Virus record (IMG/VR): IMGVR_UViG_3300021255_000027
Coordinates: 3,239 to 67,238 of that record
Reading direction: 5' to 3' (one strand)
Length of the DNA stretch: 64,000 bases
Source of the DNA: a virus
This document shows, piece after piece, positions 3,030 to 47,598 of this stretch; position 1 is the stretch's first letter; every line of letters begins with the position of its first letter. The notes beneath the pieces were generated by a model that searched no databases, was not told where the DNA came from, and worked only from the letters and a program-made list of their open reading frames with translations. Both the position numbers and the translations under genes were made by a program.

Positions 3030-3436
3030 AAAGGCTCCTTCCTGCAACGGTCACAGCCTAGTTCACAAATCACATCGGCCAACTCCCTCGCAGAATCCCC
3101 AGAGAGGTATGCCGGAGTCTCACCCTCAAGATCTACCCCAAGACTCTTGGCAATCGCAACAGCCAAGTGATGGATCTCATGGACAAGACTGTCTTGGAAC
3201 TCCTTCCCCGAAGTGGTAGGGCCGATGACTACCAAGGCTTTCTTCATCTCTCCATTTGAAAACGTGAACCCCTCATTCGGCTTTGATTTCTGCATCTTCC
3301 TCGCAGCTTTGACCAAAGTGTAGTCAGGGGCATCAAGATCATACATGATGTCCAAAATTGGATTGACATCATAACCATCCGTGGCAAAGATAAAGTACAC
3401 ATGCCAACGGCCTATGTTAAGCTCCCGATAAACCAT
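3026..3436 (-). CDS. putative zincin-like metallopeptidase
   Basis: LVHEIHHLA (HExxH) with downstream ETPAYL. Confidence 0.6.
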   Translation of the reverse strand: MVYRELNIGRWHVYFIFATDGYDVNPILDIMYDLDAPDYTLVKAARKMQKSKPNEGFTFSNGEMKKALVVIGPTTSGKEFQDSLVHEIHHLAVAIAKSLGVDLEGETPAYLSGDSARELADVICELGCDRCRKEPF

Positions 3437-23038: not shown

Positions 23039-23449
23039 ATGAGAGATACCGAACTGATTAGGGCGAAAGAGCAAGCCTTGTATGCCGTCTACAAGAGAGG
23101 ACTGGAGGAGGGTCGCTTCAAATCTTTCCGGGAAGCAGGGGAATGGACGAGGAAACAGCCCGCCCCCAGGTATTTCATTGACTCTCGCACGGCTTCATTG
23201 CTATTGGGAAAGATTCACAACCAGTCTTTCCTGATGGGGCTTCACCCCGCTTCACGGAGACTAATCCTCCATCTCGACTCTAAATACAAGGAATACCTTC
23301 ACGAACATCCTAAAAGCACGTTATCCAGAGAAAGGATAATGGAACTGCTCGTGGAAGAACCCGCCCCCGAATTCTACATAACCGGGGAAGGAGCGAGGAA
23401 GATAATACGCAAGGTGATAAAAGGAATCAGGGAGAAGTGGGGACAATGA
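23039..23449 (+). CDS. hypothetical basic protein, possible transcription regulator
   Basis: Internal repeat PAPRYFID/PAPEFYIT each followed by a helix. Confidence 0.65.
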   Translation: MRDTELIRAKEQALYAVYKRGLEEGRFKSFREAGEWTRKQPAPRYFIDSRTASLLLGKIHNQSFLMGLHPASRRLILHLDSKYKEYLHEHPKSTLSRERIMELLVEEPAPEFYITGEGARKIIRKVIKGIREKWGQ

Positions 23450-23940
23450 GATACGTTCTGATCATACTCATGATAGCGGTGTATGCCATCTTCGGCATAC
23501 CGACATGGTTGGAGATGGGGGAGTCCCCTTATCTTGCCAGGGCATTGGCCTATTCTTTCTTCCACGCTTCCCTCTGGCATCTGGCCGTGAACTCCCTTGC
23601 CACATGGACTCTTTACAGAAATGCAAGTTTCTGCAAGGCTTGCAAGGAATTGCTTGTCGCTTTCCTCATCGCAGTGGCCGTCTACCCTCTCTCGTTCCGT
23701 CCCGTAATCGGATTCTCAAACGTACTCTATGCCACCATAGGCATGCGTACACCACCGCTATCCTCACCATGGTGGAGGAAGTCTCCCGTGATAGTCTTCC
23801 TTGCCGTGACCGTTGCCATGTTTTTCATACCGAGGTTCAGTGCCACGACACACGTAGCGGCATTCGCTCTGGGAATAGGATACGCCTATCTGCGGAGATT
23901 CCATAAATCAATCATGAACGATGCAGGGCGCTATCTATAA
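23446..23940 (+). CDS. rhomboid-family intramembrane serine protease
   Basis: FFHASLWHLAVN, IGFSNV (GxS catalytic Ser), TTHVAAFALG (catalytic His); multi-TM. Confidence 0.75.
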   Translation: MRYVLIILMIAVYAIFGIPTWLEMGESPYLARALAYSFFHASLWHLAVNSLATWTLYRNASFCKACKELLVAFLIAVAVYPLSFRPVIGFSNVLYATIGMRTPPLSSPWWRKSPVIVFLAVTVAMFFIPRFSATTHVAAFALGIGYAYLRRFHKSIMNDAGRYL

Positions 23941-28520: not shown

Positions 28521-28577
28521 AAGTGACGAATTAATATACACTACGCAACGAAAATAGGGATGCTTTCGCACCCCTAT

Positions 28578-31374: not shown

Positions 31375-34300
31375 TTACTTGGATTTGCGTTCTTTGACTA
31401 ATTTCTTAAATCTCTTGAGATATGCCTTCTCTCGTTTCTCTTCTGCCTCATCAGAGTATGCCCAGCCGGTGATTGGTGCGCCCTTCGCTACCTTGTATCT
31501 GGCATATCTTTCTGCCATCTCGCTGACAGACATCCTCTTTGCGCTGGCCGCATTCTCACCAAGCTCATCTATATAGATCTCATCCACCTGGGACTGAGGT
31601 ACTTGCAGGACTCTCATGATGAGGAGCATTGCCTCCTTCGAGGTATCGAGGTCTCCTCCGCATGCATCTACGACAGCCACGACTGCATCCGTAAGTGTCT
31701 GGGGGTTGACCCCTATTCCCGCCTGAATGGCGAGGTTTATAAGGTCATTCGCTCCTGCTACTGGATCATAACTCATCTTCTTGTAAGCCGACTTCATGTC
31801 GCTTATGATAGGCAGCAAGGAAGGATCATAGTTATTGAGGCTCTCACCCTTGGCCACCATATTAAGAGCCTCGCTCATCACGTTACCTCCGGCCAGACCT
31901 TCAATCGTTCCTCCAATCAGTCCATGGATAAGGGCTTCTGTAAGCATCTCATCCTTCTTGTCATCATCGTCTCCGAAGAGCAGATAGGCGATGCTTCCAC
32001 CAAGATTCCAGGCGAACTGGACAAGGAATCCGAAGGTTGCCACCCTTGCGGCACTTCTCCATTTCTCCCTTTCGTAGTTCCTGTTCGCTGCATGCTCGGC
32101 CTGCTCCTCGGTGAGTCCGTCACGAACCATCTGCTTGGTCATGAACTCAATGGATGCCGCCTTGTATCCCGGCTTCATCATCTTGCCGATGTTGCGGATT
32201 GCATCATGAAGCTGTCTCTGATATCCCATCGAAGAGTTACGGAAGACAGTCAGCATGGTAGCAAGGACTGTCCTATCCAACTGTACCGGAGATGTGAATG
32301 CCGCCTCATTTGACTGCTGGGTCTCATTGTACAAAGTGGTCGCATCCTGCTTGGCCTTCTTGTCTGCTTGCGCTTCAGTGTAACCATCCTTGATGTATCT
32401 ATCGTATCTACTTTGGTAGATTGAATGTGCGCCTATTGAAACGGTCAGAGCATCCACAAAGGCATTAGGAGACATACCCCATTGTGATGCCTTCTCCACG
32501 ATTTTGTTCCTCCAGAGTTTCCAATCGGACTCAGTTTTCATCAGTCTTGTGTCTCCAGCTTGTCTGGACTTCCATCTCTTCTCGAAGAGAGGGAGGTTCT
32601 CCATCGCCCAGTTCCATGCCTTCCAAGGCGTTGCCATGTTTTCTCCGAGATACTTGATGTTGGCATCGGAAACAAATGCGGGCATCGAAAGGAACTGCTT
32701 CAAAGCCGTGTACACTCTGAAGGAGATCTTTGCTGCAGTCACACCTTTGGCTATATTCAGAGCAGCAGTATCAAGATCAGACTTCTTCCCCGCAGGGTTG
32801 TATGTACCTCCGGCAACCCTGCAGACTGCTTTGAAGTTCCTCCACAACTCACTACCAGAGCCATAGACGGTTGCCATGTTCTGCACCTGATTGCGGAATC
32901 TCTTATAGGAGAGCAGGGTATTGAGGTCTTTGTTGAACTCTGCGAAGGCAGCCCACTGCTCCATCTGCTCCACATGCTCAATCACCACGGAGAAAGCATC
33001 GGCTCCAAGGAGATCAAGGTCTTGGGCATTCCTTCTTCTCTTGATAATGCTTCCAGTAGTGGTTGCAGGAAGGGCATCATCAAACTCCGGCCTTCCGATG
33101 TCTTCGGCTCTGTTGAGACTCCTCTTGTTGATCTTGAGAGGGAAGTAGTCCTCGATAGCAGCCATTGATGCTCCGAAGAGTCTCTCGTGGACTGCATTGT
33201 ATTTGTTCCTCTTGTTCACGAGGTATTCGTCCTGCAGCCAGTCTGCAAGCTCAATGAATCTGGAATCCATCTGCCTCTTGATTGCATCCACAGTCTCTTC
33301 AGTGATTCCCATCCTGCGGAGTTTCATCCTGCCATCGGTCATCTTGTTGACCATGTAGATGTACAGAAGATTGCCCTGGGTTAGATCATGCTCCTTCATT
33401 TCGCCACCATCCCACCACTTGACCTTGACGGTAGGCATCTTCCTTTCCTCTTCATAGAGATCACTCCACCTCATCTTCTTGTCGAAAACCTCGCTGACCT
33501 TGGCATCAAGTTCTTCCTTGGCCTGCTTCTCTCCGAGATAGGCATTCTCCTGCGCATCGAGCCATCCTCTGTGGAACTTGTTGAAGAGGTAGCCTTCTCC
33601 AGCCACGTTCTTCTCACCGAAGAGCCGGAGCATCTGGTCGAAGGTTGCAAGAGGCTTGGCGAAGAATCTCACGATAGAAGAGTTTGCTAGTCTTCCCATC
33701 CGGGTAGATTCCTGGAACGAGCTTGCAGACCTGCCCTGCATATCGCTATTGGCGAGGTGATGAATCTCCTCGACCCTCTGCTTCTCCCTCTCTGTGAACT
33801 CTTTCCTCGCTTCGACACTGCCTGCCATCATATCCAGCATCTTGGCCCGAAGATTACGATAGGCTTCAATGCGATCAATCTTGTTCTCCCTCAAGGACTT
33901 CTCCGCCTCTTCCACGAACTGGTTATATCCGGTTCTGGAGATGTTTCCATCACGATAGGCTTCGGCAGCCTCCTTCATCTCGTTCTTCAGGCCACGCTCT
34001 TCATTGATGCTGGCCTTTATATTCTCCTGATACTCTTGAGCGAGCATCAGTCCTGCATACTCATCTTCTGCCTCTGAACGGACTGCATCGTCCGTACTTG
34101 AAAGCCTTTCAGAGAGAGTAGAAAGCCTGCCCTTTATGGTGTTGCCATCGAACTCATCATCGGGATTTTCGATATCCATGTCAAGGCCGGCCTTGTATGC
34201 TCTGAGGATATTCTGCCCTCGGACATCAAGTTCGCCTTGGACTTCCACTCCTGCCTGATTGGTCTTGGTCGCTTTCCTATTGGCAAGCATTCCAAGTTTG

Positions 34301-37300
34301 GTCTCCTCAGATCTCATCAAGTGATCTACGATAAGACCTACCAGTGCATCAGCATTCTTCTTGACCGTCTTCGGGGCTTTGCCCACAGAGGTTGTGACGA
34401 TTCCCAGAAGCCTTGCAATCTCCCTTCTGTTGAGAGTATCGATGTTCTGATCCTTGATGATGTTCTTCGCAAGCACCGTGATGGTGTTCACGGTCTTCTT
34501 GTCATACTCCTTCTGGAGTGACATGGCCTTGATGGTGGTAAGGGCATTGTCCTCCCTTGCCGCAGCTTTATTCTCATCCTTGGTCTGCTTGGCGTCATCT
34601 GCCATAGACTCGGCTCTGTTCTCGGCTTCCTCAATATCATCAGCAAGTCTGAACCTTACAGGATCTGCGAACTCTCCGACCTGCAGTCTGCGCTGCATGG
34701 CGATGTCATTCACGGTGTCGAGGAGGTCATCGTCTTCTACCTTCCGGTCACCTCTCCAGAGGATATACCTTGCAGTCCTCTCGTCAAGGTCTCCTACATA
34801 GTCACGAAGCATGTTGGCAGCGAGTCCTGCTATTCCGGTCTCGTCTCCCTTCTCAACTGCTTCTGCTATGGCATTCTGTGTAGCCTCGGAGAAGAGGAAT
34901 CCATCTCCGGCCCTATCGACTATCCGCTCACGGATCTCCTTGGGGATTGCACGGTAGACATTGTGATAGAGTTCTGTAGCGTTCTCATCACCGATTACTC
35001 TGGTCAGTCCTCCTTCACGGGATTCGTTGAACAGATTCTGGCTCCTACGGAAGAGGACATCTTCCTTGGCTTCAGTTTCCTTGACCTTGCCGGAAGGAGT
35101 GTCACTTATCTGGACTCCTCTGTTCTCCAGTTCTTCACGGAGTGAAGGGGTGACGGTGTTGTAGGGGACTGCGATGTCTTCTCCTTCCAAAAGCTCTGCA
35201 ATCCTGTCTGCCACCTCGCTGTCAGGAACAATGCGAATCGGCTTGTCCCATCTGGAGAGAATCACCTTGCGCTTCTTCTCTTCGGGCAGTTTGCTACTGA
35301 CAGGCCCAGCATGCCATGTCATCTCTCCTACGGAGTCCTTGGCTTTCTCTGCCTTGTATCCGCTCGTCAGTTCGCTTTCGGGAACTTCCACCTCTACGGT
35401 CACCAGATTCGGTCTGTCATAAGCAGAGGTGAACTGGTCATTGAGAGGGGAGCGAGAGGTATGAATGTACGGATTATACCTTGCCTTGAGCGACTTGCCG
35501 TTACCCTTGTTAAGGGTGAAGTTGCCCTTTGCATCTGCGAGATCCGGTCTTTCAACGGCCTCCTCCCAGACACCGAGTTCAATCGGCTCTTGCATCTTGC
35601 CCTCAACCTTGGCGGCCATTGGAGGATAGAGTTGTCCATCTATCTCCTGCATAGCACGATAGACCTTGATTGTCGGCTCGGACTCCAGTCGCTCAAGTGT
35701 TGCCGGGTCGGTTACCTTGCGGAACTGAACAATCTGCTCACTCCTGGAGTACTCCTCTGTGACTTCAGGAGAATACTTCTGCCTCTTTTCATCGGACAGG
35801 GTAGACCTTCTTTCTACATTCCTTGCCTCTACCTCGCCTGCGGAATTCTCATAGCTCTTTTCTCCTGCCTTCTCTGCTGTCTTCACGACCTTGGCAGCAC
35901 GACTGACGAACTTCTTGAACTCATCATCGGAGATCCCCTTCAGATAGTTGATGAGATTCCTAAAGTATTCCTTATCCTGTTCAGTCAGGTTAGACTGGTC
36001 ATAGTTCTCTGCAAATCTAATGACCTTACTCCTTCCGACCTGGTTCAGTTTCCTTGCAGAGTTCTTCCTTGAGAAGAACCAAGCGAAGTAGGTCTCTTCG
36101 GGTTTAGACTTTAGAGCATCACGATAATAGAGTCTTTCTCCCTGCTTTGCATTCGTCCCTTTGGCAAAGCCTTCAATATGCTGAATAGCATGTTGCAACT
36201 CATGGAGGATCGTGCGAATACCTTCTTTGGTCAGTTGCCTCTGTCCATCGCTTTCCTTTGTATTGTAATCCGTATCAAGGACTATCCTATTCTTCTCCGC
36301 ACTATATGCTCCTGCCGCTACAGTATTTGCCAAATCAATAGGAATCTCGGCCAATTGCGGATATGAAGCAAACAATTCGGGGGCATCAAGTACCTCGCTA
36401 GCGATGTTGTGTTTCTGCAGGCTTACACCCTCTTTCTGCTTGGCATCGGGAATCTCATTGCGCCACTTGCCATCGGCACCTCTCTCCCAGCCAGTGGCTC
36501 TCCAGATTGTCTGGCTATCCTTGCCAGCATTCTCCATCTCTTCTGCCACCTCCAGGTTGTCCAGTGCCGCCTCATCCTCTGCGTTCTCTGCTCCGATTAT
36601 CCCACGGAGACTGAAGCGGATGTCATCACTCTCTTCGTTGAACCTTTCTGAAAGAGGGATAACATTGCCGTTGTCATCATAAGTGACAGGCTCTGCGGAC
36701 TTGATCTGGTTAGGAGCAAAGACTACATAGTCATCTGCTATCTCATCTTCACGAGAGACATTCTCTCCGAGTGTATCATAGATATCAGAGACTCTCTTGA
36801 CTATTAGGCCATCGTACCCTTTCTCCTTGGCTCTCTTTGCCCAGGCATTGGTATCCATCTCGCCCTGTGCAATTATACTCTTTTCAGAGATACCCTTCTC
36901 TTTTGTAAAGACAAGAGCCTCCGCATATGTGTCGAACTGCTCATCAATCTCTACTCCGTCCTTGTCCGAATAGACCTCATAGTAGGCAGGGAGTTGATCC
37001 CAACTCATACCTTCGGCATCAATGATTAAAGGGTTCTTGATGTTAAGGAAGACATTTAACAAGTCTCCTCCATCCTGTTGGTAGGTCTCGGCATGAGCTT
37101 TAATGTTTGTGAACCAGTATGTCCCCCTTGGACTATCCGACCACTTATGCTCATCGTTGAATTTCGTTATTCCCTTCTTGTAGGAGCCATGATAGACTAC
37201 TTTCGGCTTGCCATCCTCATCCACGACCTTAGTATCTGGCATAGCCAGGGCAGCAGCCTCTCTGACCATCTGCTGTGCCTTGTCCATGTCGCCAGCATTG

Positions 37301-40300
37301 ACGGCATCCATGTACTCCTTGTCCTGCTCAAGGGTAATCTGGCCCTTCCTGAACATTGTCTGCCCCTCCATCACGGACTCCTTCATCTCCGGGGTCACAT
37401 CAACGGAGTGCATAACAAGTGGACGGCCAGTCTCATCATAGACCTCTGACAGAGCAACATCCTGGACTTTGACTCCCCACTTCTTGCCGTACTTGTTCAT
37501 GAAGCGGGGGAGGATGTCATCATAGAAACCGTTCATACCTTCACCACCGACACGGAGACCATCACCTGAGATGGTCTGCTCTTCGGTGCTATCAAGAATC
37601 CTCTTGGCGATATCTTTCCCTACAACATCCGAGAGATTCTTTCCCACATACTGATCATCCCTGCTATTATCCGAGAGAATAGTCCCTTCCTTGTCGGTGT
37701 TGAAAAGTAGAACGTCTCCTTTGTTAAGGACGATATCTACGTTGTAGCCTTCAGATTTATAAGGGGTAGACTCAATCTTATTGACCACTCCTCCAAGATT
37801 GTACCTCTCTGCCTGCTGGTCACCAGTAGTCCACGCAATCTTGTCGTAGCCTTCCTCGGCAGCCAGACGGAGCATACGCTTCATCGCAAGCTCATGCCAG
37901 TTCTTCTCAAAGGGAGCAGCGGGAACTCTATCCCTTACCTTCCGCCATTCTTCTTGAGTCGTATTAACTGCTTGGTTAAGTTTAGCCGCCTTTTGGAATT
38001 CCTCCGGTGTGGCCTTGTTGTAGATTTTTTGCATCAAGACATAGGAGATATCGTCCTTCAAATTATACTTATCCCGCAGCTCTTTGGAATAATCCTCCCA
38101 TTCTTTTTCCGCTTTATCCCTCGCTTTCTTGACCAAACTAGTATTCTCATCCGTATATCCTCCTCTCTCCCTAGCTTCCTGATGCCTCTTGGACTGGATC
38201 TCATCAATGACGAGAACCCTACTTCTCCTCCCTTGTGGAGTGGTGCGGACTGGCCTTTCGTTCAGCCCTAGTTCTTCCTTGTATGCATCTCGCTCGGCTA
38301 TGGCTTCTCTCAATGCCGCCTCTGCCAAATCCAATTCTTCCTGATTGGTTGAAGCCTGAGCGGATAAGCCTGCTTCCCTCACTCGCTTCTCCAGAGAATC
38401 AAGCCTCTCCCTCTGTTCGGGGGTCAACTCTTTTTCATTCGACTGTTCCTCGCCCTGCTCACCGGCTTCAACCGATGTGGCATCTCCGAACCTTATCCAC
38501 GCCACGGCTCGACCTTCTCCGGCATCACCGAAGTGAATCTTGTCTCCTTCATTCCAAGGATCGATAGTCGGGACAGTCAAGGCAATCTCGGCCTTGTTAG
38601 ACAACCCAGGGGTAGTGTAATCCAGACGGACGCTATCAATAGGTCTGACCTCTGCTCCATCTAGTCCTAAGAAATATTTTGTGGCATCATTGAATTCTTC
38701 ATCGTATTCCTGCATCGGTGCAAGAGTATGTCCGTCAACCTCGAATGCAAGTCTGAAGTCATCACCATACTTCTCCACCATCTGCTCAAAGGCATACTCT
38801 GGTGCGCTTGCCCAGTAATAGGAATTCTCTACATCTCCGTTCCTCCATTCATCTGCGAAGGTATCAAACTCATCCTGATATCTTTGCAGAGCTTCTGAAG
38901 CAGCCCTTTCTGCACCTAGAATAGCCTCCTCGGAATAATGCTGTTCCTCAATCTGGATTCGGTTCTGTTCAATGAAGTCCCCTATCTCATCTTTGGTAAG
39001 GGTCTTCTTGTCGGATTCCTTGAGCCAGTCAGAGAGTCCAAGCCATTTGTCCTCGCCAGCCTTGAGTCCACCTTCCTTCTCCAGCATCTTTCTCCACTGC
39101 TCCGGTGTGGCCTTCTCCATCTTGATCTTGTCCAGAGCCATCTCTGCATTGGAGATAAATCCGTTCTGGGTCTGGTTGGCCTTGCGGAACATCACATTGC
39201 CTTCGGGTTCAATCCCCTCATCAAAGTATCTGCGAATGTCATTGATAACCCTCTCTGGCCTTGCATGATTGTAAGACGCATAATGGTCGGAATCATAGCC
39301 ATCACCGAAGTCCACATCCACATCTCCATTTGCTCTCTGGATAAGTGTCCAAAGAACATTCTCTTGGCCACTGGTAGGCTTCGTTGCTAGATTGATGACA
39401 CCGGAGTTCAGACGAATCGCACCCCTACGGATGAAGTCGCTCATGTCGGTCTCATATCCACTAGGGGTATTCAGATCTTTCTCGTAGTTAAGGTCGCTTA
39501 TGTCACGGTGATCAACCGTGCGTCCGCCATTCAACCAACTAGAGTCCTTGTTAGGGTCAACAAGATGACGGCCACTGAAGTCAAGCATTGATCCATCAGG
39601 AATCACATATCCTGCCTCGGATAGATTCTTTGTTACTCCGAAAGTCTTCTTCGCCCGCTCGAACAACTCCTCGCTCTTCTCATCAACGATAGGCTCAACC
39701 TTGCGGAATTGGACATTCTCATCAAGAGGAAGGGTGCGGACTTTCTGTCCATCCTTCCATTCTTCCCTGAGGATGAGGTCACCTTCCTTGTTCCACTGCT
39801 CCTGCAGACCATCCACTTCTCCATCCTTGAAGTCTCCCCTCAACCACAACTTACCATTCTCATGGTATACCTCTTTCATCCCGTTTCGTTCTCCCTCAAC
39901 ATAGTGGGTTCTTGTTTGGATAGTTCCATCGGGATAATAGTATTCTACAGTGCCATCAAGTTTGCTCCCGTGGTATTCCTCCCTCTTGTGCAGTTTCCCA
40001 TTTGCACGGAATTCTTCCTCCACTCTCTTCTCCTTTCCGTTGCTATCTAAAGGCAAATAAGTCACTCTTCTTCCTATCCCTATATGGGCTTTGATTCCCT
40101 TTTCTGCTCTCCAGGAAACATAGTCCTCGTAACCGGCCAGAGTCCCTTCCTCATCAAAATGTTGAATAAATTTAGGCTCTCCTGTCTCATAATATTGTAT
40201 ATGGTCTCCAACCGTTTTCCCCTCCTTCGCTCGCCACTCATAACTTTTGTTTCCATTTCTATACCAGCCGACTTGCTCTCCATCCCTATCTCCCTCCTCA

Positions 40301-43300
40301 TTCATCTCCGCCTTCACCTTCTGCTGGCCGTTGTCATACCACTGCTCATAAGTACCGACATAGCGGTCTTCTTTTAAGACTGCCCTTCTCCTAATTTGGC
40401 CAGAAGGATACCACTCCTCGGAGATTCCCTCCTCCTTCCCGTCCTTGTATTCAATACGGGAAAGAAGCTGACTACCATCAGAATTCCATTCTTCATAGAC
40501 TCCGTTCTGACGGTTGCCCCGATACATATGACCGCCCGGCTCAATGATGAGTTTACCTCCCTCATCAACGATATAATCTGCACTACGGCCAAGTTCATCC
40601 CCTTCAACTTTCTTTGTGAGAGGAATACCATAATGGCTCTGGTCTTGCCTATCCCACCAGACCCTCGTATGGGTATCGTTGGCAGAGAAAGCAAGCAACT
40701 TACCATCCTTGAACGCCACCTGCTTCGGATATGCATTGTAGTGTTTCCAATATTTTGCGGATTGTTCCGTCAGGTTACCCTTGCCATCACCCTGAAGCAG
40801 ACACCAAGGAGATGCATCCTCACCGAAGTGGGTGTTGATAATCTTCCTCATATTCTCCCTGCTCTCCTTCGTGTTGTCCACATCATAGACCACGATTCCA
40901 TCGGGATACTCGGCAGCACGATGGAGAGTGGATACCTCGTCTGGATTGATCCTCTCCTCTGACGGCTTGAACTCCGCATGGGCATCAAGCAGTTCCATAG
41001 GGGAGTTGTAGCGTAAAGGATCTACCTTCGCCTTACCAGCGACAGAGATAGCCTGCTGAACTTTCTTCATATCCTCCGGGATACGGATTGTCCCGTTGGC
41101 GAACCACTTGGCCGTAGCAAGCTGGGTCTTGGCATCATCCAGTTTGTCAATGTAGTCCACGACCTCTGCCCTCTGCTCATCATTGAGATCCTCTCTCTTC
41201 TTTAGCCAGGACTCTACGGTGGCCTTGTTGTTCTTGGAGAGTCTGAACATCACATCCTCTTCGGTGACCACTGGCTCTGCTGCCTCGGATGCCGGCTGCT
41301 TCTGGGTTGCATTGGCTACTTCAAGAGGTTCTCTCTCGCTCTTAAACTCTCCGGTCTCAAGGTAGTTGAGGACACTCTGCTGGGCTTTGGTAATTTTATC
41401 CCCTCCGATGCGCCTCGGTGTACCTTGATGGGTGCGGGGCCTCTTCTTCTTGCCCGCCATTGCTGCAAGTTTCTCCGCACTTGCCTTGATATCCTGCCTT
41501 CCATAGTCCACATCCTTTGCGGTCTTTCCGGCCTCAACATCGGCTGCAACCTGCTCAACTCCTCTCTCAAATGCTCCTTCCTCGGTGAACCATCCTGCAT
41601 AGTAGCCTCCCTTGTCCACGAATTCATCGAAAGACCGCCTCGCCTCCTGAATATCGAAGATGGGTTTGATGCGAACCGTCTCATTGACAGAACGCCTCGT
41701 CTCATTGACGAGTTTCATATAGTCGGGATCTTCGGTGACACTCCTGCCTGTAGACGGAAGAATAAGGTCAGCGAACCTCGGCTTCAAACCCCTCTCTTCG
41801 CACAGCCGTAGGAAGGTATCCTTATCATTCATATGCTCGGTAGGCATGATGTCCCTTGACCTTCCCTTGACATCCTTATCAGCCTCCATGGCAGTGTAGT
41901 TCGTCCAATCATAGAACTTGGCGATGTCCTCTCCCGTCCTCACGATATGGAACGGGATGACTACATCCACCCAGGGCTGGTGAATTGCCCACTCAACCAT
42001 CCTGTCATTGGTGGCTACGAATACGCATCCCACGTTGCCGTATCTTTCACGCAGGGCTTGGGCTTCACCCCAGTCTGCACCCTGCTTGGTATCCATCACA
42101 ACCGTCCCATCTTCGGCTTCACGGCCATAACAGGAGATGTTGATGTTTATTCCCGTAGGTGCGAAGATCTTGGCGAAGTCTATCTCCTTGGTGTATGCGA
42201 GTCCTACCAGACCCCGCAAGGCTGCATCCCTCACCATCTGCATGTTCTCCACGATGAAGGCAGGGGAGTATTCGGAGAAGGAATAGAACCTAAGCCCATA
42301 TTCACTATTGAGGAGGTTAACTACCTTCTGGGGCATTGACAATAGTTCGCCATTGTATGCACGATATTCCTCCTGCTTCTTCGCCCACGATGCGCTCTGT
42401 GCATATTTCTCGGCATCATCTATCTGGGCTGCATATGAAGCTCCTTTCCCCGCCACCTTCTGGCGAGTCTCTGGAGAAGTGAGGTCTTTCATCCCTATCA
42501 GAGTGCCTTCGGCTATCCTGTCAAGCCAACCGTTGAATCGGTTTCTCATTGAAGGCGTGTCAGCCCTTCCATCCAGGTATTCAAGGTAGAGCTTATTTAC
42601 TTGATTGTCAGCAGACAATGCCTTGCGATTCTTCCTACTCTTCGCCTGAGCGGGAAGGCGGTAGGTTTTGTCTATGGAGTCATCAGCCTTGTATTTATCC
42701 AAGACCGCATCCCTCTGCTCGATGTATGTCTTGAGGAATCCATTGTATGCCTTCCTATCCAGTGCAACGTAGCAGTACAGACACTGCGGGTCGGTGGCTA
42801 TGTCGTAGAGCATCTGGGAAGCGAGGAACGACTCAGTAGGAGTAAGAGGTCTCCCAACCTTCTCCTGCACGGCATTCACGAAGTCATTGTATGCGAGAGT
42901 CCTCATGCATATGAGGGTGTTCTCCATCGTCCTGCCATACGATCCGTTCTTGAAGATGGTTGACCAACCCTTGCCGAATATCTCTTCTGGCAGATACCTC
43001 TTCCCATCCTTGACCTTGTCAAGGTACGGCATCATGTAGTTTACCATCTCTCCGATGGCATCGCTTCCGATTGCCAGTTCCTCTGGTGTTAGTGGCTTAT
43101 CGGCCAACTTGGCAAGGAAACCATCTGCCAGGGTGCGAAGTCCGGGAACAGGCTTCCCTTCACCGTCTACGGAGTCTTCCTCCCTTCTGAGGGAGAACAT
43201 GGTCTCGTCAGGGGCAGAAGGAGATTCCTGTCCCGTGGGTGCATCCATATAGGATGTGAGTTTGCCGTCCTCTATGACGAAGTTTGTGCCCTTCTCTTGC

Positions 43301-46300
43301 TGGGCAGGGGAGAGGGTAGGAGTTACTTGTTCTCCTGCTCCTTCAGTTCCTTGATCGCTTCCTTCTCCAGATCCAGATCCCTGTTCTCCCAGGTTCCCTT
43401 CGGGCTGCGATGCGCTATCTCCGCCATCTTGTCGTTCACCTTCTTGGGCATTGTCACCAGAAAGTGTATCTCGTCCTGACGAATCGAGCGTCTGATCATT
43501 TCCTCGTTCTCCATTGTATATGGTTTTTACAAAGTTAATAATTTCTTGATTATCAAGACCGGCATTGCGGAGATTCTCATCAACATTTTCGGGGGTGCTT
43601 TCTGCAACCACCTCCATTGAGAGTGCTATTACCTCGTCTGCCAGAGCCTGTTGGGGATTAGGGTAGTCAAGATAGTCTCCATATCCATTCTTGTCACTGA
43701 CTCCGGCCATTTTGTTGGCGGCAGCAAGAAGGTATTCTGTTGTCGCTCCAGGGATAGATGCAACGACTTTCTGGTATCCATTCTGCCTATTGACCTCATG
43801 CCAATGCTCATGGAGATGGGCAAGCCTTGCTCTCCTTGCATCCCTGATGTCATCGGCAACGATGAAGACGGTATTACCGATATGGAATCCTTCAGTAAGA
43901 GTACCTTCGGCATTCAACTGGTCTCTGACCTGTCCGATGACCCTCTCGGAGAATCCGAGTTCTGCCATTCTCTGGAGTATGTCTGCCCTTGTACCTACGA
44001 CTGTAGGATCTGTGGTGGTGAGTGCATAATACTCTTCCAGAGCCTGCCTCTTCTCTTCGGGAGTCTTGGCTTCTGCCAGTCTGCTCTCAAGGGCTTGTTC
44101 GGGAGTCTGGGGAGCCACCTCTTCCTGAACTTCGGGAGCAGCCTCTACTTCTCCCTGTGTCTGCGCTGCCTCTGCAACGGGTGCTGCCTCTGTGGTCTCT
44201 GCTACTGGAGCAGGAGCTTCGGCAGGGGTCTCGACTGCTTCCGTCTGTGCGACCTCGGCATTGGCATAGTTGTTCTCTATCCTCTCAAGGTCTGCTATCC
44301 TTGAATTGATCTGACCAAGCTGGCCTTCCAACTCGGAGATCCTATCGAAGTCAAGTTCACTGTCAATCTGCTTCTGGACTGCCTTGGCATCGGACTGGAG
44401 TTTCTTCGTAGCCTTGGCGATGTATCCACGGCTATTTGCTCCTCCATCATTCCTCTGTGAGTCATTCCATCTTGCCCATGCTTCGGGATCTGCATTCCAG
44501 AGTGCGGTCTGGTTGACTGAACCATCATCCTTCAGAGGGATAGGATTGCCTCTGAAGTCACGCAGTGTATTATCTTCCTCTATGGGTGCTTCCTCTTCTG
44601 TCTGCACCTCTTCTGCTTGTGTCTCTTCTGGAGTCTTGAGAGAATCAAGGACAGATGTGAGATTACCCTGAAGGGCCATCTCCTCCGTTATCTGCTCATC
44701 CTTGCCCGTCTCCTTGTCGGTGACCTGGAGCATCATTGTCCCATCTTCGTTGAGGAATGCCCTCTTGAACTGGTATGTAACCGGCTCCTCACCCTCTACC
44801 AGAACGGCATTGAATTCCGTTCCTTCGGGTATGGTCTTATTGTAGTCCTCCTTCCTGCTACGGATATCGTCTTCTGCCTGGATCTCTTCCTGCTCGATCT
44901 GCTCATCGGTCTTGACCTCGACAGGAGTACCGAGGTAGTTGCCCACCTGCTCCCAAGTCAAGGTAGCATCCTTTGCTCCGTCCTCATCCTGCCAAGTGAC
45001 ATGCACACCATTGGCATTAGCGGCATCCACGACTGCCATCTTCGGTGCTTCCTCTGTACCCATGTTGATAGTAGGGTCGGCAGCTATTCTTTCTTGAATG
45101 GCAGTAATCTGGCTTGATGTCTCCTCTGCCATCCTCTGCTCTTCTGCAGCCCTCTGGTCGTTCTCGCTGATTCCGTCCAGATAGTCATTGATTGGCTGTT
45201 CTCCGGAGTCTGTGAGTGAACCATCGGCAATTCCAGCCTCAAGCTCCTCATTGGTGAGGAACGAGTAACTGCCATCCTTGCCGATCAGGGCATACTGACC
45301 ATCTAACGAATTCACGACAAACCTCTCATTGCCCTCTGCATCGGTGATGGTACGGACGTAGTTTGCTCCGTTCTCTCCCTCATGATACCAGCTCTTGTTT
45401 CCTACCTGCTCATCCAGGAGAGCGGTATTCTGCGCACGGGCTATATCCTGCTCTTCATCGAAGATTCCCCTGAGGACTTTATATTGTGCTGCGGATTGGA
45501 GATACTGCCCCATCGCCATACCCAGATCAGGTGCGATGTCGTTGGTAAGCAGACCTGTGTCTCCTACCATCTTGCCAATCTTGGCAATCTCCGAACCGAG
45601 TTCTGCAGGAGTTTTCATCAGTTCGTTTCCGTTGTTGCTGATTGCCCTAAGACTATCCTCGACATCTTCCATCCGCTCCTCATCCAGGCCAAGGTTGTTC
45701 AATATGGTCTTCAGTTGGTCACCATACTTGGACATCTGTTTCCCTGCCTTGCGAATCTGATATCCCGATGCCCCCGCACCGATGATGCTCATGGGAGCGA
45801 AGGATGCGAGAGTAGTCCAGAATTCATCACCACTAAAGAAATTCTTGAGTGCTTCGGGATCTGTTCCGACTTCTGGGATAGACCTCATGGCATTGCCAAG
45901 GACTTCCTCGGCCATTTCACCAATCAGTCCATGCCAGCCCGCATCCTTGAGCAGACGGCCTGCACCAGTCCTTGACATGGCCTTGCCTATCTCTCCAAGT
46001 TTACTCTTGGCTATGCCATCGAAAATCTTTGTTTCAAATGGAATCCCAAAGAGTTCTCCTGCATTCTCAGAGAAGGTCTCAATGAGTCCATCCTCAATAG
46101 CCTTCCTGACAGCCTTGGCAGACAGATCCATCTGACCCTCGCCATTTAGTTGGGTCATGGTATTGATAAAGTTGGCATAAGATGAAGGCATCAAAGGAGT
46201 CATGACCAGTGCCTTTGTCGCACCCTCAAGACCTCCCACGAGCATCTTCTTGCCAGCTTCGGACAATGTCTTGCCCGCCATCTCTTTAGCGGTAGTTTTA

Positions 46301-47598
46301 AGCAGACTCTTCGCTGCCGCAGAACCGACACCTCCGGTAATAAGGAAGTCTCCCATGAATCCGAGAGACTGAACTGCTCCCTTACCAGCATTATAGCCGA
46401 TGGACATATTGTCCGACCTCCCTTGCTCAACTTCAAATCTCTTGGCGAAAGCCTTCAACATTTCCTTCTGACCATCGCTCAGATAGTTGAGTTTATCCGA
46501 GTCATTATTGATGAGATTAATGAGATTTACATCCTTGCCTTCGGCCTGCTGTATCTGCTTGACAGTATTTATGAGGTTGACATCCTGAAGGGATTTGGCA
46601 AGTTCAAGGATGGATACTGCGCTTGTGATATTCGCTCCCACTCCCTTCGCAAAGTTCACCAGACCCCATGAGTCATCATACTTGCTAGGTGCTTTCGCAG
46701 TCTCCAGAGCTTCCTTGTAGTATTTCCTAGCAGTGAGGTAGTAATCCTGCTCCTGCTCATTGCCTTGCCTTTCCTCTGCTCCGCCAATCAGATCCAATGC
46801 TTCTTGGTCGCTCATATTGGCAGACCTACCGGATATATTGGCATTCTCCTTGGCCTTCGCATCCATGGCATCAATAAGACTGGGGAGTTCCTCCTTCGTC
46901 TTATTCCAATAAGCTATCCAAGCAGGGTTGTTCTCTCTCTCCTTACGAAGTTGTTCAAGTTCCTTCTTGATCTCGGATCTCCTTCTCCCTTCAGGGCTAT
47001 TGGCTTCTTGCGCATACTGGATTGCTTCTGCCCTTGACAGACCACGATAATCCCTCTCTTCGGGAAGAGTATCCAACTCATTCTCAAGAGCCTCTATTCT
47101 TGAGTATATGTCTATAAGCCTATCTGCTCCTTCTGGACGGCTGCTAGGTTGGTTACCATATCTGTCCTTTACCTTGCCATATCTGTCAGCATTTTGACCT
47201 ACGAAGTCAATATACTGCTGCTTCTCCTCATCGGGAAGGTTGGCATCATCCACCTTGCTCTGGGCGAACTCATATTGATGTGCGAAATCCCGATTGCGCC
47301 TTGCCGTGATGTCATCCGACACGCTTATCTTTGCTCCTGGGTATTTCTCCATCAAATTCTTCCCTGCCTTTGAGAACTGGTCGTAATTCCAATCCGTTTC
47401 CCTTCCGTCATCCAGAGTGATATGGAAACTGGAATCGGGGGTCAGTTCCGACTGATCAGAGTATCCAGATATTCTGTTCACTTGAGCATCTGGGTATTTC
47501 TCAAAAAGGCTTTGGGCTGCTTTGTTATACTGCTTCTGATCCCACTCCGTCTGTCTTCCATCGGGGAGGGAGATGCTGAACTTTACATCTTCTGGCAT
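31375..47598 (-). CDS. giant polyvalent (internal virion/ejection) protein, 5407 aa
   Basis: Uninterrupted ORF; HExxH peptidase motifs, MORN-like repeats, ART-like YHGS domain, LPD23-like domain, C-terminal hydrophobic helices. Confidence 0.85.
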   Translation of the reverse strand: MPEDVKFSISLPDGRQTEWDQKQYNKAAQSLFEKYPDAQVNRISGYSDQSELTPDSSFHITLDDGRETDWNYDQFSKAGKNLMEKYPGAKISVSDDITARRNRDFAHQYEFAQSKVDDANLPDEEKQQYIDFVGQNADRYGKVKDRYGNQPSSRPEGADRLIDIYSRIEALENELDTLPEERDYRGLSRAEAIQYAQEANSPEGRRRSEIKKELEQLRKERENNPAWIAYWNKTKEELPSLIDAMDAKAKENANISGRSANMSDQEALDLIGGAEERQGNEQEQDYYLTARKYYKEALETAKAPSKYDDSWGLVNFAKGVGANITSAVSILELAKSLQDVNLINTVKQIQQAEGKDVNLINLINNDSDKLNYLSDGQKEMLKAFAKRFEVEQGRSDNMSIGYNAGKGAVQSLGFMGDFLITGGVGSAAAKSLLKTTAKEMAGKTLSEAGKKMLVGGLEGATKALVMTPLMPSSYANFINTMTQLNGEGQMDLSAKAVRKAIEDGLIETFSENAGELFGIPFETKIFDGIAKSKLGEIGKAMSRTGAGRLLKDAGWHGLIGEMAEEVLGNAMRSIPEVGTDPEALKNFFSGDEFWTTLASFAPMSIIGAGASGYQIRKAGKQMSKYGDQLKTILNNLGLDEERMEDVEDSLRAISNNGNELMKTPAELGSEIAKIGKMVGDTGLLTNDIAPDLGMAMGQYLQSAAQYKVLRGIFDEEQDIARAQNTALLDEQVGNKSWYHEGENGANYVRTITDAEGNERFVVNSLDGQYALIGKDGSYSFLTNEELEAGIADGSLTDSGEQPINDYLDGISENDQRAAEEQRMAEETSSQITAIQERIAADPTINMGTEEAPKMAVVDAANANGVHVTWQDEDGAKDATLTWEQVGNYLGTPVEVKTDEQIEQEEIQAEDDIRSRKEDYNKTIPEGTEFNAVLVEGEEPVTYQFKRAFLNEDGTMMLQVTDKETGKDEQITEEMALQGNLTSVLDSLKTPEETQAEEVQTEEEAPIEEDNTLRDFRGNPIPLKDDGSVNQTALWNADPEAWARWNDSQRNDGGANSRGYIAKATKKLQSDAKAVQKQIDSELDFDRISELEGQLGQINSRIADLERIENNYANAEVAQTEAVETPAEAPAPVAETTEAAPVAEAAQTQGEVEAAPEVQEEVAPQTPEQALESRLAEAKTPEEKRQALEEYYALTTTDPTVVGTRADILQRMAELGFSERVIGQVRDQLNAEGTLTEGFHIGNTVFIVADDIRDARRARLAHLHEHWHEVNRQNGYQKVVASIPGATTEYLLAAANKMAGVSDKNGYGDYLDYPNPQQALADEVIALSMEVVAESTPENVDENLRNAGLDNQEIINFVKTIYNGERGNDQTLDSSGRDTLSGDNAQEGERQDGGDSASQPEGNLGEQGSGSGEGSDQGTEGAGEQVTPTLSPAQQEKGTNFVIEDGKLTSYMDAPTGQESPSAPDETMFSLRREEDSVDGEGKPVPGLRTLADGFLAKLADKPLTPEELAIGSDAIGEMVNYMMPYLDKVKDGKRYLPEEIFGKGWSTIFKNGSYGRTMENTLICMRTLAYNDFVNAVQEKVGRPLTPTESFLASQMLYDIATDPQCLYCYVALDRKAYNGFLKTYIEQRDAVLDKYKADDSIDKTYRLPAQAKSRKNRKALSADNQVNKLYLEYLDGRADTPSMRNRFNGWLDRIAEGTLIGMKDLTSPETRQKVAGKGASYAAQIDDAEKYAQSASWAKKQEEYRAYNGELLSMPQKVVNLLNSEYGLRFYSFSEYSPAFIVENMQMVRDAALRGLVGLAYTKEIDFAKIFAPTGININISCYGREAEDGTVVMDTKQGADWGEAQALRERYGNVGCVFVATNDRMVEWAIHQPWVDVVIPFHIVRTGEDIAKFYDWTNYTAMEADKDVKGRSRDIMPTEHMNDKDTFLRLCEERGLKPRFADLILPSTGRSVTEDPDYMKLVNETRRSVNETVRIKPIFDIQEARRSFDEFVDKGGYYAGWFTEEGAFERGVEQVAADVEAGKTAKDVDYGRQDIKASAEKLAAMAGKKKRPRTHQGTPRRIGGDKITKAQQSVLNYLETGEFKSEREPLEVANATQKQPASEAAEPVVTEEDVMFRLSKNNKATVESWLKKREDLNDEQRAEVVDYIDKLDDAKTQLATAKWFANGTIRIPEDMKKVQQAISVAGKAKVDPLRYNSPMELLDAHAEFKPSEERINPDEVSTLHRAAEYPDGIVVYDVDNTKESRENMRKIINTHFGEDASPWCLLQGDGKGNLTEQSAKYWKHYNAYPKQVAFKDGKLLAFSANDTHTRVWWDRQDQSHYGIPLTKKVEGDELGRSADYIVDEGGKLIIEPGGHMYRGNRQNGVYEEWNSDGSQLLSRIEYKDGKEEGISEEWYPSGQIRRRAVLKEDRYVGTYEQWYDNGQQKVKAEMNEEGDRDGEQVGWYRNGNKSYEWRAKEGKTVGDHIQYYETGEPKFIQHFDEEGTLAGYEDYVSWRAEKGIKAHIGIGRRVTYLPLDSNGKEKRVEEEFRANGKLHKREEYHGSKLDGTVEYYYPDGTIQTRTHYVEGERNGMKEVYHENGKLWLRGDFKDGEVDGLQEQWNKEGDLILREEWKDGQKVRTLPLDENVQFRKVEPIVDEKSEELFERAKKTFGVTKNLSEAGYVIPDGSMLDFSGRHLVDPNKDSSWLNGGRTVDHRDISDLNYEKDLNTPSGYETDMSDFIRRGAIRLNSGVINLATKPTSGQENVLWTLIQRANGDVDVDFGDGYDSDHYASYNHARPERVINDIRRYFDEGIEPEGNVMFRKANQTQNGFISNAEMALDKIKMEKATPEQWRKMLEKEGGLKAGEDKWLGLSDWLKESDKKTLTKDEIGDFIEQNRIQIEEQHYSEEAILGAERAASEALQRYQDEFDTFADEWRNGDVENSYYWASAPEYAFEQMVEKYGDDFRLAFEVDGHTLAPMQEYDEEFNDATKYFLGLDGAEVRPIDSVRLDYTTPGLSNKAEIALTVPTIDPWNEGDKIHFGDAGEGRAVAWIRFGDATSVEAGEQGEEQSNEKELTPEQRERLDSLEKRVREAGLSAQASTNQEELDLAEAALREAIAERDAYKEELGLNERPVRTTPQGRRSRVLVIDEIQSKRHQEARERGGYTDENTSLVKKARDKAEKEWEDYSKELRDKYNLKDDISYVLMQKIYNKATPEEFQKAAKLNQAVNTTQEEWRKVRDRVPAAPFEKNWHELAMKRMLRLAAEEGYDKIAWTTGDQQAERYNLGGVVNKIESTPYKSEGYNVDIVLNKGDVLLFNTDKEGTILSDNSRDDQYVGKNLSDVVGKDIAKRILDSTEEQTISGDGLRVGGEGMNGFYDDILPRFMNKYGKKWGVKVQDVALSEVYDETGRPLVMHSVDVTPEMKESVMEGQTMFRKGQITLEQDKEYMDAVNAGDMDKAQQMVREAAALAMPDTKVVDEDGKPKVVYHGSYKKGITKFNDEHKWSDSPRGTYWFTNIKAHAETYQQDGGDLLNVFLNIKNPLIIDAEGMSWDQLPAYYEVYSDKDGVEIDEQFDTYAEALVFTKEKGISEKSIIAQGEMDTNAWAKRAKEKGYDGLIVKRVSDIYDTLGENVSREDEIADDYVVFAPNQIKSAEPVTYDDNGNVIPLSERFNEESDDIRFSLRGIIGAENAEDEAALDNLEVAEEMENAGKDSQTIWRATGWERGADGKWRNEIPDAKQKEGVSLQKHNIASEVLDAPELFASYPQLAEIPIDLANTVAAGAYSAEKNRIVLDTDYNTKESDGQRQLTKEGIRTILHELQHAIQHIEGFAKGTNAKQGERLYYRDALKSKPEETYFAWFFSRKNSARKLNQVGRSKVIRFAENYDQSNLTEQDKEYFRNLINYLKGISDDEFKKFVSRAAKVVKTAEKAGEKSYENSAGEVEARNVERRSTLSDEKRQKYSPEVTEEYSRSEQIVQFRKVTDPATLERLESEPTIKVYRAMQEIDGQLYPPMAAKVEGKMQEPIELGVWEEAVERPDLADAKGNFTLNKGNGKSLKARYNPYIHTSRSPLNDQFTSAYDRPNLVTVEVEVPESELTSGYKAEKAKDSVGEMTWHAGPVSSKLPEEKKRKVILSRWDKPIRIVPDSEVADRIAELLEGEDIAVPYNTVTPSLREELENRGVQISDTPSGKVKETEAKEDVLFRRSQNLFNESREGGLTRVIGDENATELYHNVYRAIPKEIRERIVDRAGDGFLFSEATQNAIAEAVEKGDETGIAGLAANMLRDYVGDLDERTARYILWRGDRKVEDDDLLDTVNDIAMQRRLQVGEFADPVRFRLADDIEEAENRAESMADDAKQTKDENKAAAREDNALTTIKAMSLQKEYDKKTVNTITVLAKNIIKDQNIDTLNRREIARLLGIVTTSVGKAPKTVKKNADALVGLIVDHLMRSEETKLGMLANRKATKTNQAGVEVQGELDVRGQNILRAYKAGLDMDIENPDDEFDGNTIKGRLSTLSERLSSTDDAVRSEAEDEYAGLMLAQEYQENIKASINEERGLKNEMKEAAEAYRDGNISRTGYNQFVEEAEKSLRENKIDRIEAYRNLRAKMLDMMAGSVEARKEFTEREKQRVEEIHHLANSDMQGRSASSFQESTRMGRLANSSIVRFFAKPLATFDQMLRLFGEKNVAGEGYLFNKFHRGWLDAQENAYLGEKQAKEELDAKVSEVFDKKMRWSDLYEEERKMPTVKVKWWDGGEMKEHDLTQGNLLYIYMVNKMTDGRMKLRRMGITEETVDAIKRQMDSRFIELADWLQDEYLVNKRNKYNAVHERLFGASMAAIEDYFPLKINKRSLNRAEDIGRPEFDDALPATTTGSIIKRRRNAQDLDLLGADAFSVVIEHVEQMEQWAAFAEFNKDLNTLLSYKRFRNQVQNMATVYGSGSELWRNFKAVCRVAGGTYNPAGKKSDLDTAALNIAKGVTAAKISFRVYTALKQFLSMPAFVSDANIKYLGENMATPWKAWNWAMENLPLFEKRWKSRQAGDTRLMKTESDWKLWRNKIVEKASQWGMSPNAFVDALTVSIGAHSIYQSRYDRYIKDGYTEAQADKKAKQDATTLYNETQQSNEAAFTSPVQLDRTVLATMLTVFRNSSMGYQRQLHDAIRNIGKMMKPGYKAASIEFMTKQMVRDGLTEEQAEHAANRNYEREKWRSAARVATFGFLVQFAWNLGGSIAYLLFGDDDDKKDEMLTEALIHGLIGGTIEGLAGGNVMSEALNMVAKGESLNNYDPSLLPIISDMKSAYKKMSYDPVAGANDLINLAIQAGIGVNPQTLTDAVVAVVDACGGDLDTSKEAMLLIMRVLQVPQSQVDEIYIDELGENAASAKRMSVSEMAERYARYKVAKGAPITGWAYSDEAEEKREKAYLKRFKKLVKERKSK

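Follow-up and report, generated by a model that had tools for sequence, protein, structure and literature searches.

How a single phage protein several thousand residues long is put together from its functional units, and whether it is taken apart into them again, is the question raised by a 64,000-nucleotide stretch of viral DNA (positions 3,239 to 67,238 of the IMG/VR record IMGVR_UViG_3300021255_000027; hereafter, the window). In this window, one minus-strand open reading frame (ORF), 31375..47598, encodes a protein of 5,407 amino acids (aa) followed by a stop codon. A Pfam search of this giant protein identified, above the Pfam cutoffs, the ART-PolyVal domain (PF18760, aa 3460-3636, 6.5e-26) and the LPD23 domain (PF18838, aa 3667-3720, 7.8e-17), and MORN_2 repeats were detected near aa 2547. 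The combination of these domains is a mark of the polyvalent proteins of phages and conjugative elements defined by Iyer et al. 2017 (PMC5512222), and the giant ORF is accordingly assigned to this class. In keeping with the class definition, it combines signature domains (ART-PolyVal and the LPD families) with many unrelated ones, at least 10 units being set off by homology breakpoints; an additional match to LPD14 (aa 548-612) is weak and falls under the Pfam cutoff. The main observation reported here is that the same short peptide stands at every border between the cassettes of this protein, is portable through their shuffling among homologues, and is tuned in each phage lineage.

The preliminary description of this DNA recognized in the giant protein nine copies of a pattern, [VTI]-x-F-[RS][KLR], mostly after acidic residues and each at a change in domain character. 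All nine are present in the single reading frame of the ORF, against 0.54 predicted from composition and a mean of 0.57 (maximum 5) in 2,000 residue shuffles, and an Asp or Glu residue occupies positions -3 to -1 in 9 of the 9 copies. The pattern was set post hoc by that earlier reader; the same signal, however, recurs in independent homologues (see below). The nine motifs split only the central ~2,850 residues of the protein, delimiting eight cassettes of 650, 513, 173, 612, 246, 297, 224 and 133 aa, and a looser motif scan yielded no further convincing copy either in the N-terminal 1,465 residues or in the C-terminal 1,094. The features of the giant gene are as follows.

31375..47598, minus strand: giant ORF, predicted polyvalent virion or ejection protein (Pfam domains; 477 giant homologues at E≤0.001)
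43204..47598, minus strand: N-terminal frame, aa 1-1465; no internal junction motif; ends in zincin 1 and a Gly/Ser/Glu/Gln-rich linker
43798..43812, minus strand: HExxH signature of zincin 1, HEHWH, aa 1263-1267 (invariance in homologues)
43624-43641, minus strand: ADEVIA, aa 1320-1325, with the candidate third ligand E1322 (invariance in homologues)
43189..43203, minus strand: junction 1, TMFSL, aa 1466, opening cassette 2 of 650 aa (motif scan)
41239..41253, minus strand: junction 2, VMFRL, aa 2116, opening cassette 3 of 513 aa, with SPWC and MORN_2 (motif scan)
39700..39714, minus strand: junction 3, VQFRK, aa 2629, opening cassette 4 of 173 aa (motif scan, breakpoints)
39181..39195, minus strand: junction 4, VMFRK, aa 2802, opening cassette 5 of 612 aa (motif scan, breakpoints)
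37345..37359, minus strand: junction 5, TMFRK, aa 3414, opening cassette 6 of 246 aa (motif scan)
36691-37221, minus strand: ART-PolyVal domain of cassette 6, aa 3460-3636 (Pfam)
36607..36621, minus strand: junction 6, IRFSL, aa 3660, opening cassette 7 of 297 aa (motif scan)
36439-36600, 36190-36204 and 35818-35838, minus strand: LPD23, HELQH and GEVEARN of cassette 7, respectively
35716..35730, minus strand: junction 7, VQFRK, aa 3957, opening cassette 8 of 224 aa, with a weak ADP-ribosyltransferase-like fold (motif scan)
35044..35058, minus strand: junction 8, VLFRR, aa 4181, opening cassette 9 of 133 aa (motif scan)
34645..34659, minus strand: junction 9, VRFRL, aa 4314, opening the C-terminal frame (motif scan)
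31378..34659, minus strand: C-terminal frame, aa 4314-5407 (1,094 aa); no internal junction motif

A search with aa 1400-4400 produced, among 1,200 scored candidates, 477 proteins of 2,973-9,463 aa with E≤0.001, many of them encoded on contigs of about 60-70 kilobases; the best 120 of these 477 giant proteins, the query included, were stored for comparison. The exact pattern occurs in these 120 proteins 268 times (79.5 expected) and is missing from 39 of them, whereas for the strict core, [ILVMT][RMQL]F[SR], 762 copies stand against 126.1 expected and 104 of the 120 proteins have four or more, which identifies [VTI]-x-F-[RS][KLR] as a local dialect of a family-wide junction peptide. The tripeptides RFS, IRF and DIR rank among the top over-represented ones in the set. 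The family consensus is an acidic linker followed by [DE]-[IV]-R-[FY]-[SR]-h (also written [IVT]-R-[FY]-[SR]-h, where h is a hydrophobic residue). A logo of 367 non-redundant contexts is informative only at positions -3 to -1, where Asp, Glu, Gly or Asn is found, in the core, [VIT]-R-F-[SR], at +4, which is occupied by Lys, Val, Ile or Leu, and at +5, where the residue is small.

These peptides coincide with the borders at which the proteins exchange parts. When the whole giant protein was compared by BLAST with the 119 homologues (segments of at least 80 aa), 261 of the 730 segments started within -5 to +25 of a motif (5.2% expected) and 243 ended within -40 to +5 (7.7% expected); all nine motifs sit at homology breakpoints. 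The Pfam domains likewise begin just past a motif, LPD23 (aa 3667) after the motif at aa 3660 and ART-PolyVal (aa 3460) after that at aa 3414, so that the placement of the motifs at changes in domain character holds up. Conserved cassette tails stop exactly at the motif (...IPLSxRF-x5-D|IRFS, ...VTPEMKESVMxGQ|xMF[SR] and ...RYFDEG-x5|xRFS). In 425 of 480 cases, which include nine self-hits of the query, a junction-type peptide (h-x-aromatic-[SRKQ]) lies no more than three residues from the aligned cassette start, compared with only 5.5% of random windows. The cassette swaps in homologues to which the preliminary description had pointed as a check are indeed evident: the same cassette is found behind 2 to 51 distinct upstream 18-mers, the exchange falling exactly at the motif. 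Small two-domain proteins carry the motif, too. Among the 120 proteins, the N-terminal frame (aa 300-1000) is kept in 105 and the C-terminal frame in 69; cassette 5, the most widespread one, is matched in 113.

The junction peptide is, moreover, tuned per lineage, with all junctions of one protein sharing a dialect. The 738 sites found in the homologue set with [DEGNSQ][ILVMT][RMQLK][FY][SR]x have Arg at +3 in 301 cases overall, and this residue is nearly uniform inside each protein (heterogeneity among the 104 proteins with at least four sites: chi2 447, df 103). By dialect, these 104 proteins comprise 53 of the S type, 40 of the R type and 11 mixed ones. The commonest +4 residue of a protein accounts for a share of 0.53 of its sites, compared with 0.36 after permutation (maximum 0.40 in 1,000 runs). 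The six sites of protein P0021 are all FRK or FRR and the five of P0108 all FSK; P0109 has mostly YSI, and P0043 has FRE at half of its eight sites. The clade of the window has FR[KL] where the same cassettes elsewhere have FS[KVIL]. At least 7 changes of dialect occur on a FastTree phylogeny built from the C-terminal frame (69 rows, of which 49 are labelled), a count that recombination between frame and cassettes could inflate. From this concerted change at unrelated cassettes, which proceeds without homogenisation of the DNA, we infer that one shared, lineage-specific reader acts on the junctions.

That the signal might reside in the DNA, short junction homology guiding cassette exchange and the peptide being a by-product, is suggested by the exact coincidence of exchange with the motif and by two junction pairs (families D1 and D9) that share 17 of 20 and 22 of 27 nucleotides. 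These two short pairs are, however, the only DNA repeats at the junctions. The synonymous codons for Val, Arg and Ser differ among ten junction sites, the 15-nucleotide junction core is identical at only 55% on average, and the flanks hold little sequence information. Codon sharing at positions with the same residue stays within the codon usage of the gene (51 of 88, against 41.8 ± 7.5; P=0.14), also in a wider window (59 of 114; P=0.28). The varied codons without excess sharing indicate selection on the peptide and not on the DNA, that is, the junction peptide is under protein-level selection, and an explanation by a recombination signal is very improbable. Hence, of the earlier suggestion that the motif is a cassette-exchange signal, the part that stands is that it marks the borders of exchanged cassettes; a signal in the DNA itself is what the codons speak against. 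Internal translation starts at the motifs were considered as well and rejected: position 0 is GTA, ACC, GTC or ACA, and ATG is found at +1 in 4 of 10 sites.

The reading that we put first, and to which we assign slightly less than an even chance, is that the product of the giant ORF is a polyvalent ejection protein packaged in the head of a temperate, podovirus-like Bacteroidales phage, and that its junctions are read by an endopeptidase that cuts the chain. Between a conserved N-terminal frame (1,465 aa, with a zincin at its end) and a conserved C-terminal frame (1,094 aa) lie eight exchangeable cassettes of 133-650 aa. All of these cassettes, as well as the C-terminal frame, open with a junction peptide consisting of a disordered acidic linker and then h-[RMQL]-F-[SR]-[KLR]. 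Under this reading, one lineage-specific factor, most likely an endopeptidase, would read the junctions. It would cut at the hydrophobic first residue or immediately ahead of it, so that the strand stays with the cassette that follows, and some ten individual proteins would be set free from the chain, either inside the head or once ejection has taken place. Cutting is placed ahead of other readings because one chain of many units, with a recurring short site at the unit borders and lineage dialects, behaves as viral polyprotein sites do, because the site follows a disordered acidic linker, and because zincin-mediated processing of polyvalent proteins has already been proposed (PMC5512222). The conserved zincin signatures, the portal gene that lies behind the giant gene in all 8 related loci and the detection of a phi24B polyvalent protein in virions (see below for each) also count in favour of this reading.

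Several observations weigh against this reading. No cleavage product has been observed anywhere, and none of the papers retrieved in a search on virion mass spectrometry and cleavage of polyvalent proteins reports the processing of such a protein; the N4 virion RNA polymerase and certain polyvalent proteins of plasmids are described as being transferred uncut (PMC5512222). Structure models add to this side, in that both of those built with AlphaFold2 (AF2) show the motif as a strand on the downstream domain and not in a free linker. In the model of cassette 7 with its flanks (aa 3620-3980; 31-row alignment; predicted local distance difference test score, pLDDT, 84.6), the acidic linker ahead of IRFSL has pLDDT <50 and S-L-R forms a short strand, E44-46. 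In that of cassette 8 (aa 3940-4200; 50 rows; pLDDT 86.4), the residues ahead of VQFRK have pLDDT <50 and Q-F-R-K forms strand E19-22, the next junction (VLFRR) falling in a low-confidence stretch. A Foldseek search of both models against the Protein Data Bank (PDB) gave no match at E≤0.001. The modelled motif thus lies where a disordered linker gives way to the following domain, neither buried in a domain nor free in the linker. The preliminary description had held that motifs inside folded domains would contradict it; the two models bear this objection out by half, since the motif supplies the next domain with its first edge strand and yet directly follows the disordered linker.

These models also bring up the possibility that the peptide is a structural cap, an amphipathic beta-strand that comes first in the cassette, closes its N-terminal edge and insulates its folding from that of its neighbours, with no reader involved. 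The two modelled strands agree with such a role, as does a stand-alone LPD23 protein, P0325, which begins MKFSL and thus counts against a cutting site as well. The cassette-8 fold, however, does not need the strand because stand-alone cassette-8 homologues, all encoded on long contigs, either begin just after the motif position (P0132, P0133, P0135, P0137 and P0138) or span it without a motif (P0148). Furthermore, in 48 of the 50 rows of fold matches of cassette 8, the alignment starts no earlier than model residue 21, where the motif strand is ending or already past. The motif is also common to unrelated folds, and concerted S/R and +4 dialects over unrelated cassettes are unexpected without a common reader. 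On balance, we consider a pure cap unlikely. Apart from the junction question, cassette 8 (35059-35730, minus strand; aa 3957-4180) is matched in 89 of the 120 stored proteins, mostly at ~70% identity. At least 30 of its 50 best fold matches are, by title, of the ADP-ribosyltransferase (ART) fold (PARPs, Arr, DarT, ParT and Rhs ART toxins), although all have a low Z (≤5.5). The protein may thus have, in addition to the ART-PolyVal cassette recognized by Pfam, another ART-like cassette of divergent sequence.

Cultured phages provide a further view of the strand. GenBank phages contain relatives only of the LPD23-zincin cassette and of parts of cassette 5 (51 records). In F116 gp60, VQYSF stands ahead of LPD23 and ILFSR behind a SAxGNxGTF tail; in Pseudomonas phage 8P (MT152150.1, 26390-41827), the 5,145-aa 'structural protein' 8P_023 has LRYSF ahead of LPD23; and in phage AF, the match is in gp16, which is encoded beside genes annotated as internal virion proteins. 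In the 4,203-aa gp57 of Bacillus phage Dartukuta (42617-55228), annotated as a 'putative methyltransferase', there are three clear junctions. That the motif is placed directly ahead of LPD23 in F116 gp60, 8P_023 and Dartukuta gp57 is in line with a cap, and that the proteobacterial phages F116, 8P and AF have it only there speaks against a general cutting site. These proteobacterial phages show no overall motif enrichment (2 sites, with about 2-3 expected). The generalised junction code seems to be specific to the Bacteroidales-type family and some Firmicutes phages, and the strand ahead of LPD23 may be the oldest instance of the junction peptide. The giant polyvalent proteins of 8P and Dartukuta could serve as laboratory models for processing.

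If the junctions are cut, the first place to look for the enzyme is the protein itself. As stated earlier for this DNA, an HEHWH...DEVIA signature precedes the first motif: HEHWH lies at aa 1263-1267 and ADEVIA at aa 1320-1325, ~200 residues ahead of motif 1 at aa 1466. In 56 of 56 homologous regions, with a median identity of 29%, the residues H1263, E1264, H1267 and E1322 do not vary, so that this region (zincin 1, aa ~1200-1400) combines HExxH with a conserved downstream Glu, a predicted ligand, in the manner of gluzincins; it has no Pfam match and no match among PDB sequences. A second zincin signature, absent from the earlier account, is HELQH (aa 3799-3803) inside cassette 7. Over 31 sequences, its H, E, H and Q never change and E190, G302, E303 and E305 hardly ever do, with the GEVEARN block downstream. 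The best zincin folds matched by zincin 2 are PprI (Z 5.5), VgrG2b (5.0), an SprT-type protein (4.8), lugdulysin (4.4) and lethal factor (4.3), all of them weak matches, below the level of a clear match, with unrelated helical proteins scoring as high. No Pfam peptidase family reaches its cutoff in the giant protein (DUF6782 scores 18 bits against a cutoff of 27). Judged by their residues, both HExxH zincin signatures are real and conserved. The LPD23-zincin cassette is matched by 8,076 cluster representatives at E≤0.001.

The link between these zincins and the junctions is another matter. The 120 giant homologues include 33 with both types, 23 with type 1 only (the zincin 1 region being present in only 56 of the 120), 24 with type 2 only and 40 with neither. 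Twelve have no HExxH at all and yet contain 86 strict motifs (12.2 expected), the same enrichment as in the remaining 108 (676 against 113.8 expected), which indicates that the junction code is independent of a zincin in the same protein. The dialect, too, lacks a simple link to which zincin is present: no zincin column follows the S/R division cleanly, and only partial, clade-like associations are seen. All these distributions are further points on the side opposed to cutting. A complex prediction for zincin 2 (aa 3679-3955, with alignment and Zn) and a 40-aa peptide (aa 4163-4202) reached at best 0.26, with the mark at 0.32, and is no evidence either way. The earlier proposal that the upstream zincin frees injected effectors by way of the motif therefore survives with respect to the conserved zincin signature, whereas the connection to the motif is weakened by the HExxH-free homologues; we regard the HEHWH zincin as a rather doubtful junction enzyme. 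No candidates for a soluble peptidase other than the zincins were seen in the window, yet the zincins cannot be the universal enzyme of the family.

The genes around the giant ORF bear on what else might read the junctions.

28598..31372, minus strand: beta-rich protein of 924 aa, encoded between the giant and portal genes (phrog_32516; no Pfam match)
26463..28571, minus strand: P22-like portal gene, downstream of the giant gene (Pfam P22_portal, 2.3e-25)
23437..23940, plus strand: Rhomboid-domain ORF (Pfam, 1.4e-06), on the strand opposite to the head genes
20367..22103: SU10-type major capsid protein

The window additionally encodes tail proteins with Big_2 and BACON domains and a tyrosine integrase (Arm-DNA-bind_5 and Phage_int_SAM_5 domains), and the source of one giant homologue is labelled as a Bacteroidales bacterium. 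In 8 related loci (IMG/VR viral contigs fetched with the C-terminal frame of the giant protein), the portal gene lies 3' of the giant gene in all 8, directly so in 5; the 924-aa protein is found in only 2 of the 8.

This adjacency to the portal in 8 of 8 loci fits non-proteolytic handling, in which a phage factor (portal, scaffold, chaperone or ejection conduit) would bind the junction strand and spool or thread the intact chain. Per-protein dialects imply a shared reader without saying that it cuts, and the independence from HExxH, the lack of a recognisable head protease and the packaging of unprocessed N4 virion RNA polymerase (PMC5512222) all suit a reader that is not an enzyme. A single targeting signal per chain would do, however, and packaging needs no nine; the motif occurs also in small two-domain proteins, and no candidate receptor was identified. 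Handling of this kind appears improbable to us.

As to other proteases, a prohead protease, the absence of which is a further point against cutting, was found neither by Pfam in the other 27 neighbouring ORFs scanned nor by PHROG in 10 ORFs, although distant forms could escape these searches. Apart from the two zincins, no soluble protease was seen in the window by the Pfam and PHROG scans, only the Rhomboid domain. The Rhomboid ORF adjoins a 700-aa ORF that is kept in 7 of the 8 related loci and is probably the large terminase. The cuts could be made by this phage-encoded rhomboid or by a host protease, not by the zincins, and the independence of the junction code from HExxH would permit the enzyme to be a separate protein. 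A small residue at P1 is preferred by rhomboids, and the FS dialect places one at the respective position; the query phage, however, has the FR dialect, with Arg there. Rhomboids, moreover, cut in membranes, and the rhomboid homologue is present in only 2 of the 8 related loci, the two closest. We consider this explanation quite unlikely.

Several features of the giant protein stand apart from the junctions. The protein start (aa 1-100; 47300-47598, minus strand) consists of two tandem ~45-aa units, VKFSISLPDGRQTEWDQKQY... and SSFHITLDDGRETDWNYDQF..., and a small N-terminal domain of the K-x-Y-x-V-x-x-P-G type opens many homologues, too. VKFSI at aa 5 was rejected as a tenth junction, being the first strand of this small domain and matched in only 20 of the 120 homologues. 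In cassette 3, an SPWC motif is located at aa 2263-2266 (40801-40812, minus strand); no tripeptides are more strongly over-represented in the 120 homologues than PWC (57, compared with 0.5 expected) and WCL (59, compared with 1.1), and the SPWC region, a conserved Cys-containing domain fused to MORN repeats, could be a thiol enzyme. Cassette 5 partially matches phrog_7348. The PHROG search returned unnamed families of giant proteins only, plus one family labelled 'endolysin' on part of cassette 5, and in a protein atlas search this cassette scored only 0.81, to unnamed viral clusters. Comparison of the zincin 1, cassette 2 and cassette 5 sequences with PDB chains matched nothing meaningful. 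The last ~350 aa (31378-32400, minus strand) contain hydrophobic Gly-rich stretches, for example around ATFGFLVQFAWNLGGSIAYLLFG and LIHGLIGGTIEGLAGG, which might insert into the membrane during ejection.

Polyvalent proteins are widespread, and whether and where they are cut has been an open proposal since 2017. Both these proteins and the idea of their processing are thus already known; what is new is the motif throughout a large family, its per-protein dialects and its independence from HExxH. A junction peptide defined down to exact residues and lineage dialects makes the processing proposal directly testable. The boldest version, which we put forward as tentative and less probable than the reading of the giant ORF itself, is that more than 470 temperate gut-type phages use a true polyprotein strategy. 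In this strategy, a chain of 5-7 thousand residues would be loaded next to the portal, each cassette bearing an address of five residues, h-R-[FY]-[SR]-x, whose dialect would co-evolve with a lineage-specific protease. Any cassette captured by recombination would then be released automatically as a separate injected protein, a plug-and-play code for effector delivery in DNA phages. Such a release code would explain how phages freely shuffle anti-defence and takeover enzymes and would make it possible to divide giant phage proteins, thousands of which are unannotated, by rule into their functional units.

A literature search under the junction-motif strings retrieved no relevant description of the peptide, and the main text of PMC5512222, as far as it was available, contains neither 'linker', 'boundar' or 'spacer' nor a junction motif; its supplementary alignments might show the strand at domain starts. 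The polyvalent proteins described there share with the query the giant multi-domain layout, the location in the head-gene region, and the ART-PolyVal, LPD23 and candidate zincin-like domains in variable order; the query differs in having an explicit junction peptide with lineage dialects that is kept without any HExxH. A further parallel, by description, is phi24B gp47, a polyvalent protein of 2,811 aa for which a role in ejection was proposed and which mass spectrometry has shown to be present in virions (bioRxiv 10.64898/2026.04.10.717836). It is likewise a large, packaged podovirus protein with LPD domains and a metallopeptidase, although the passages on gp47 mention neither processing nor a junction motif.

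Short cutting sites are familiar from other viruses. The head protease gp21 of T4 cuts at L/I-x-E, and phiKZ-like phages use S/A/G-x-E; there, as here, a short recurring site lies at the borders of proteins that are loaded into the capsid and injected. The motif of the query is, however, hydrophobic-Arg-aromatic and not x-x-Glu, its sites join many cassettes in one chain, and Pfam finds no prohead protease in the window. The polyproteins of RNA viruses are cut by a cognate protease, such as 3C in picornaviruses and NIa in potyviruses. The query belongs to a DNA phage, its units are exchangeable accessory effectors and not a replication core, and cleavage is only putative; it shares with these polyproteins the single chain that contains many functional units and the short site, tuned by lineage, at each of their borders.

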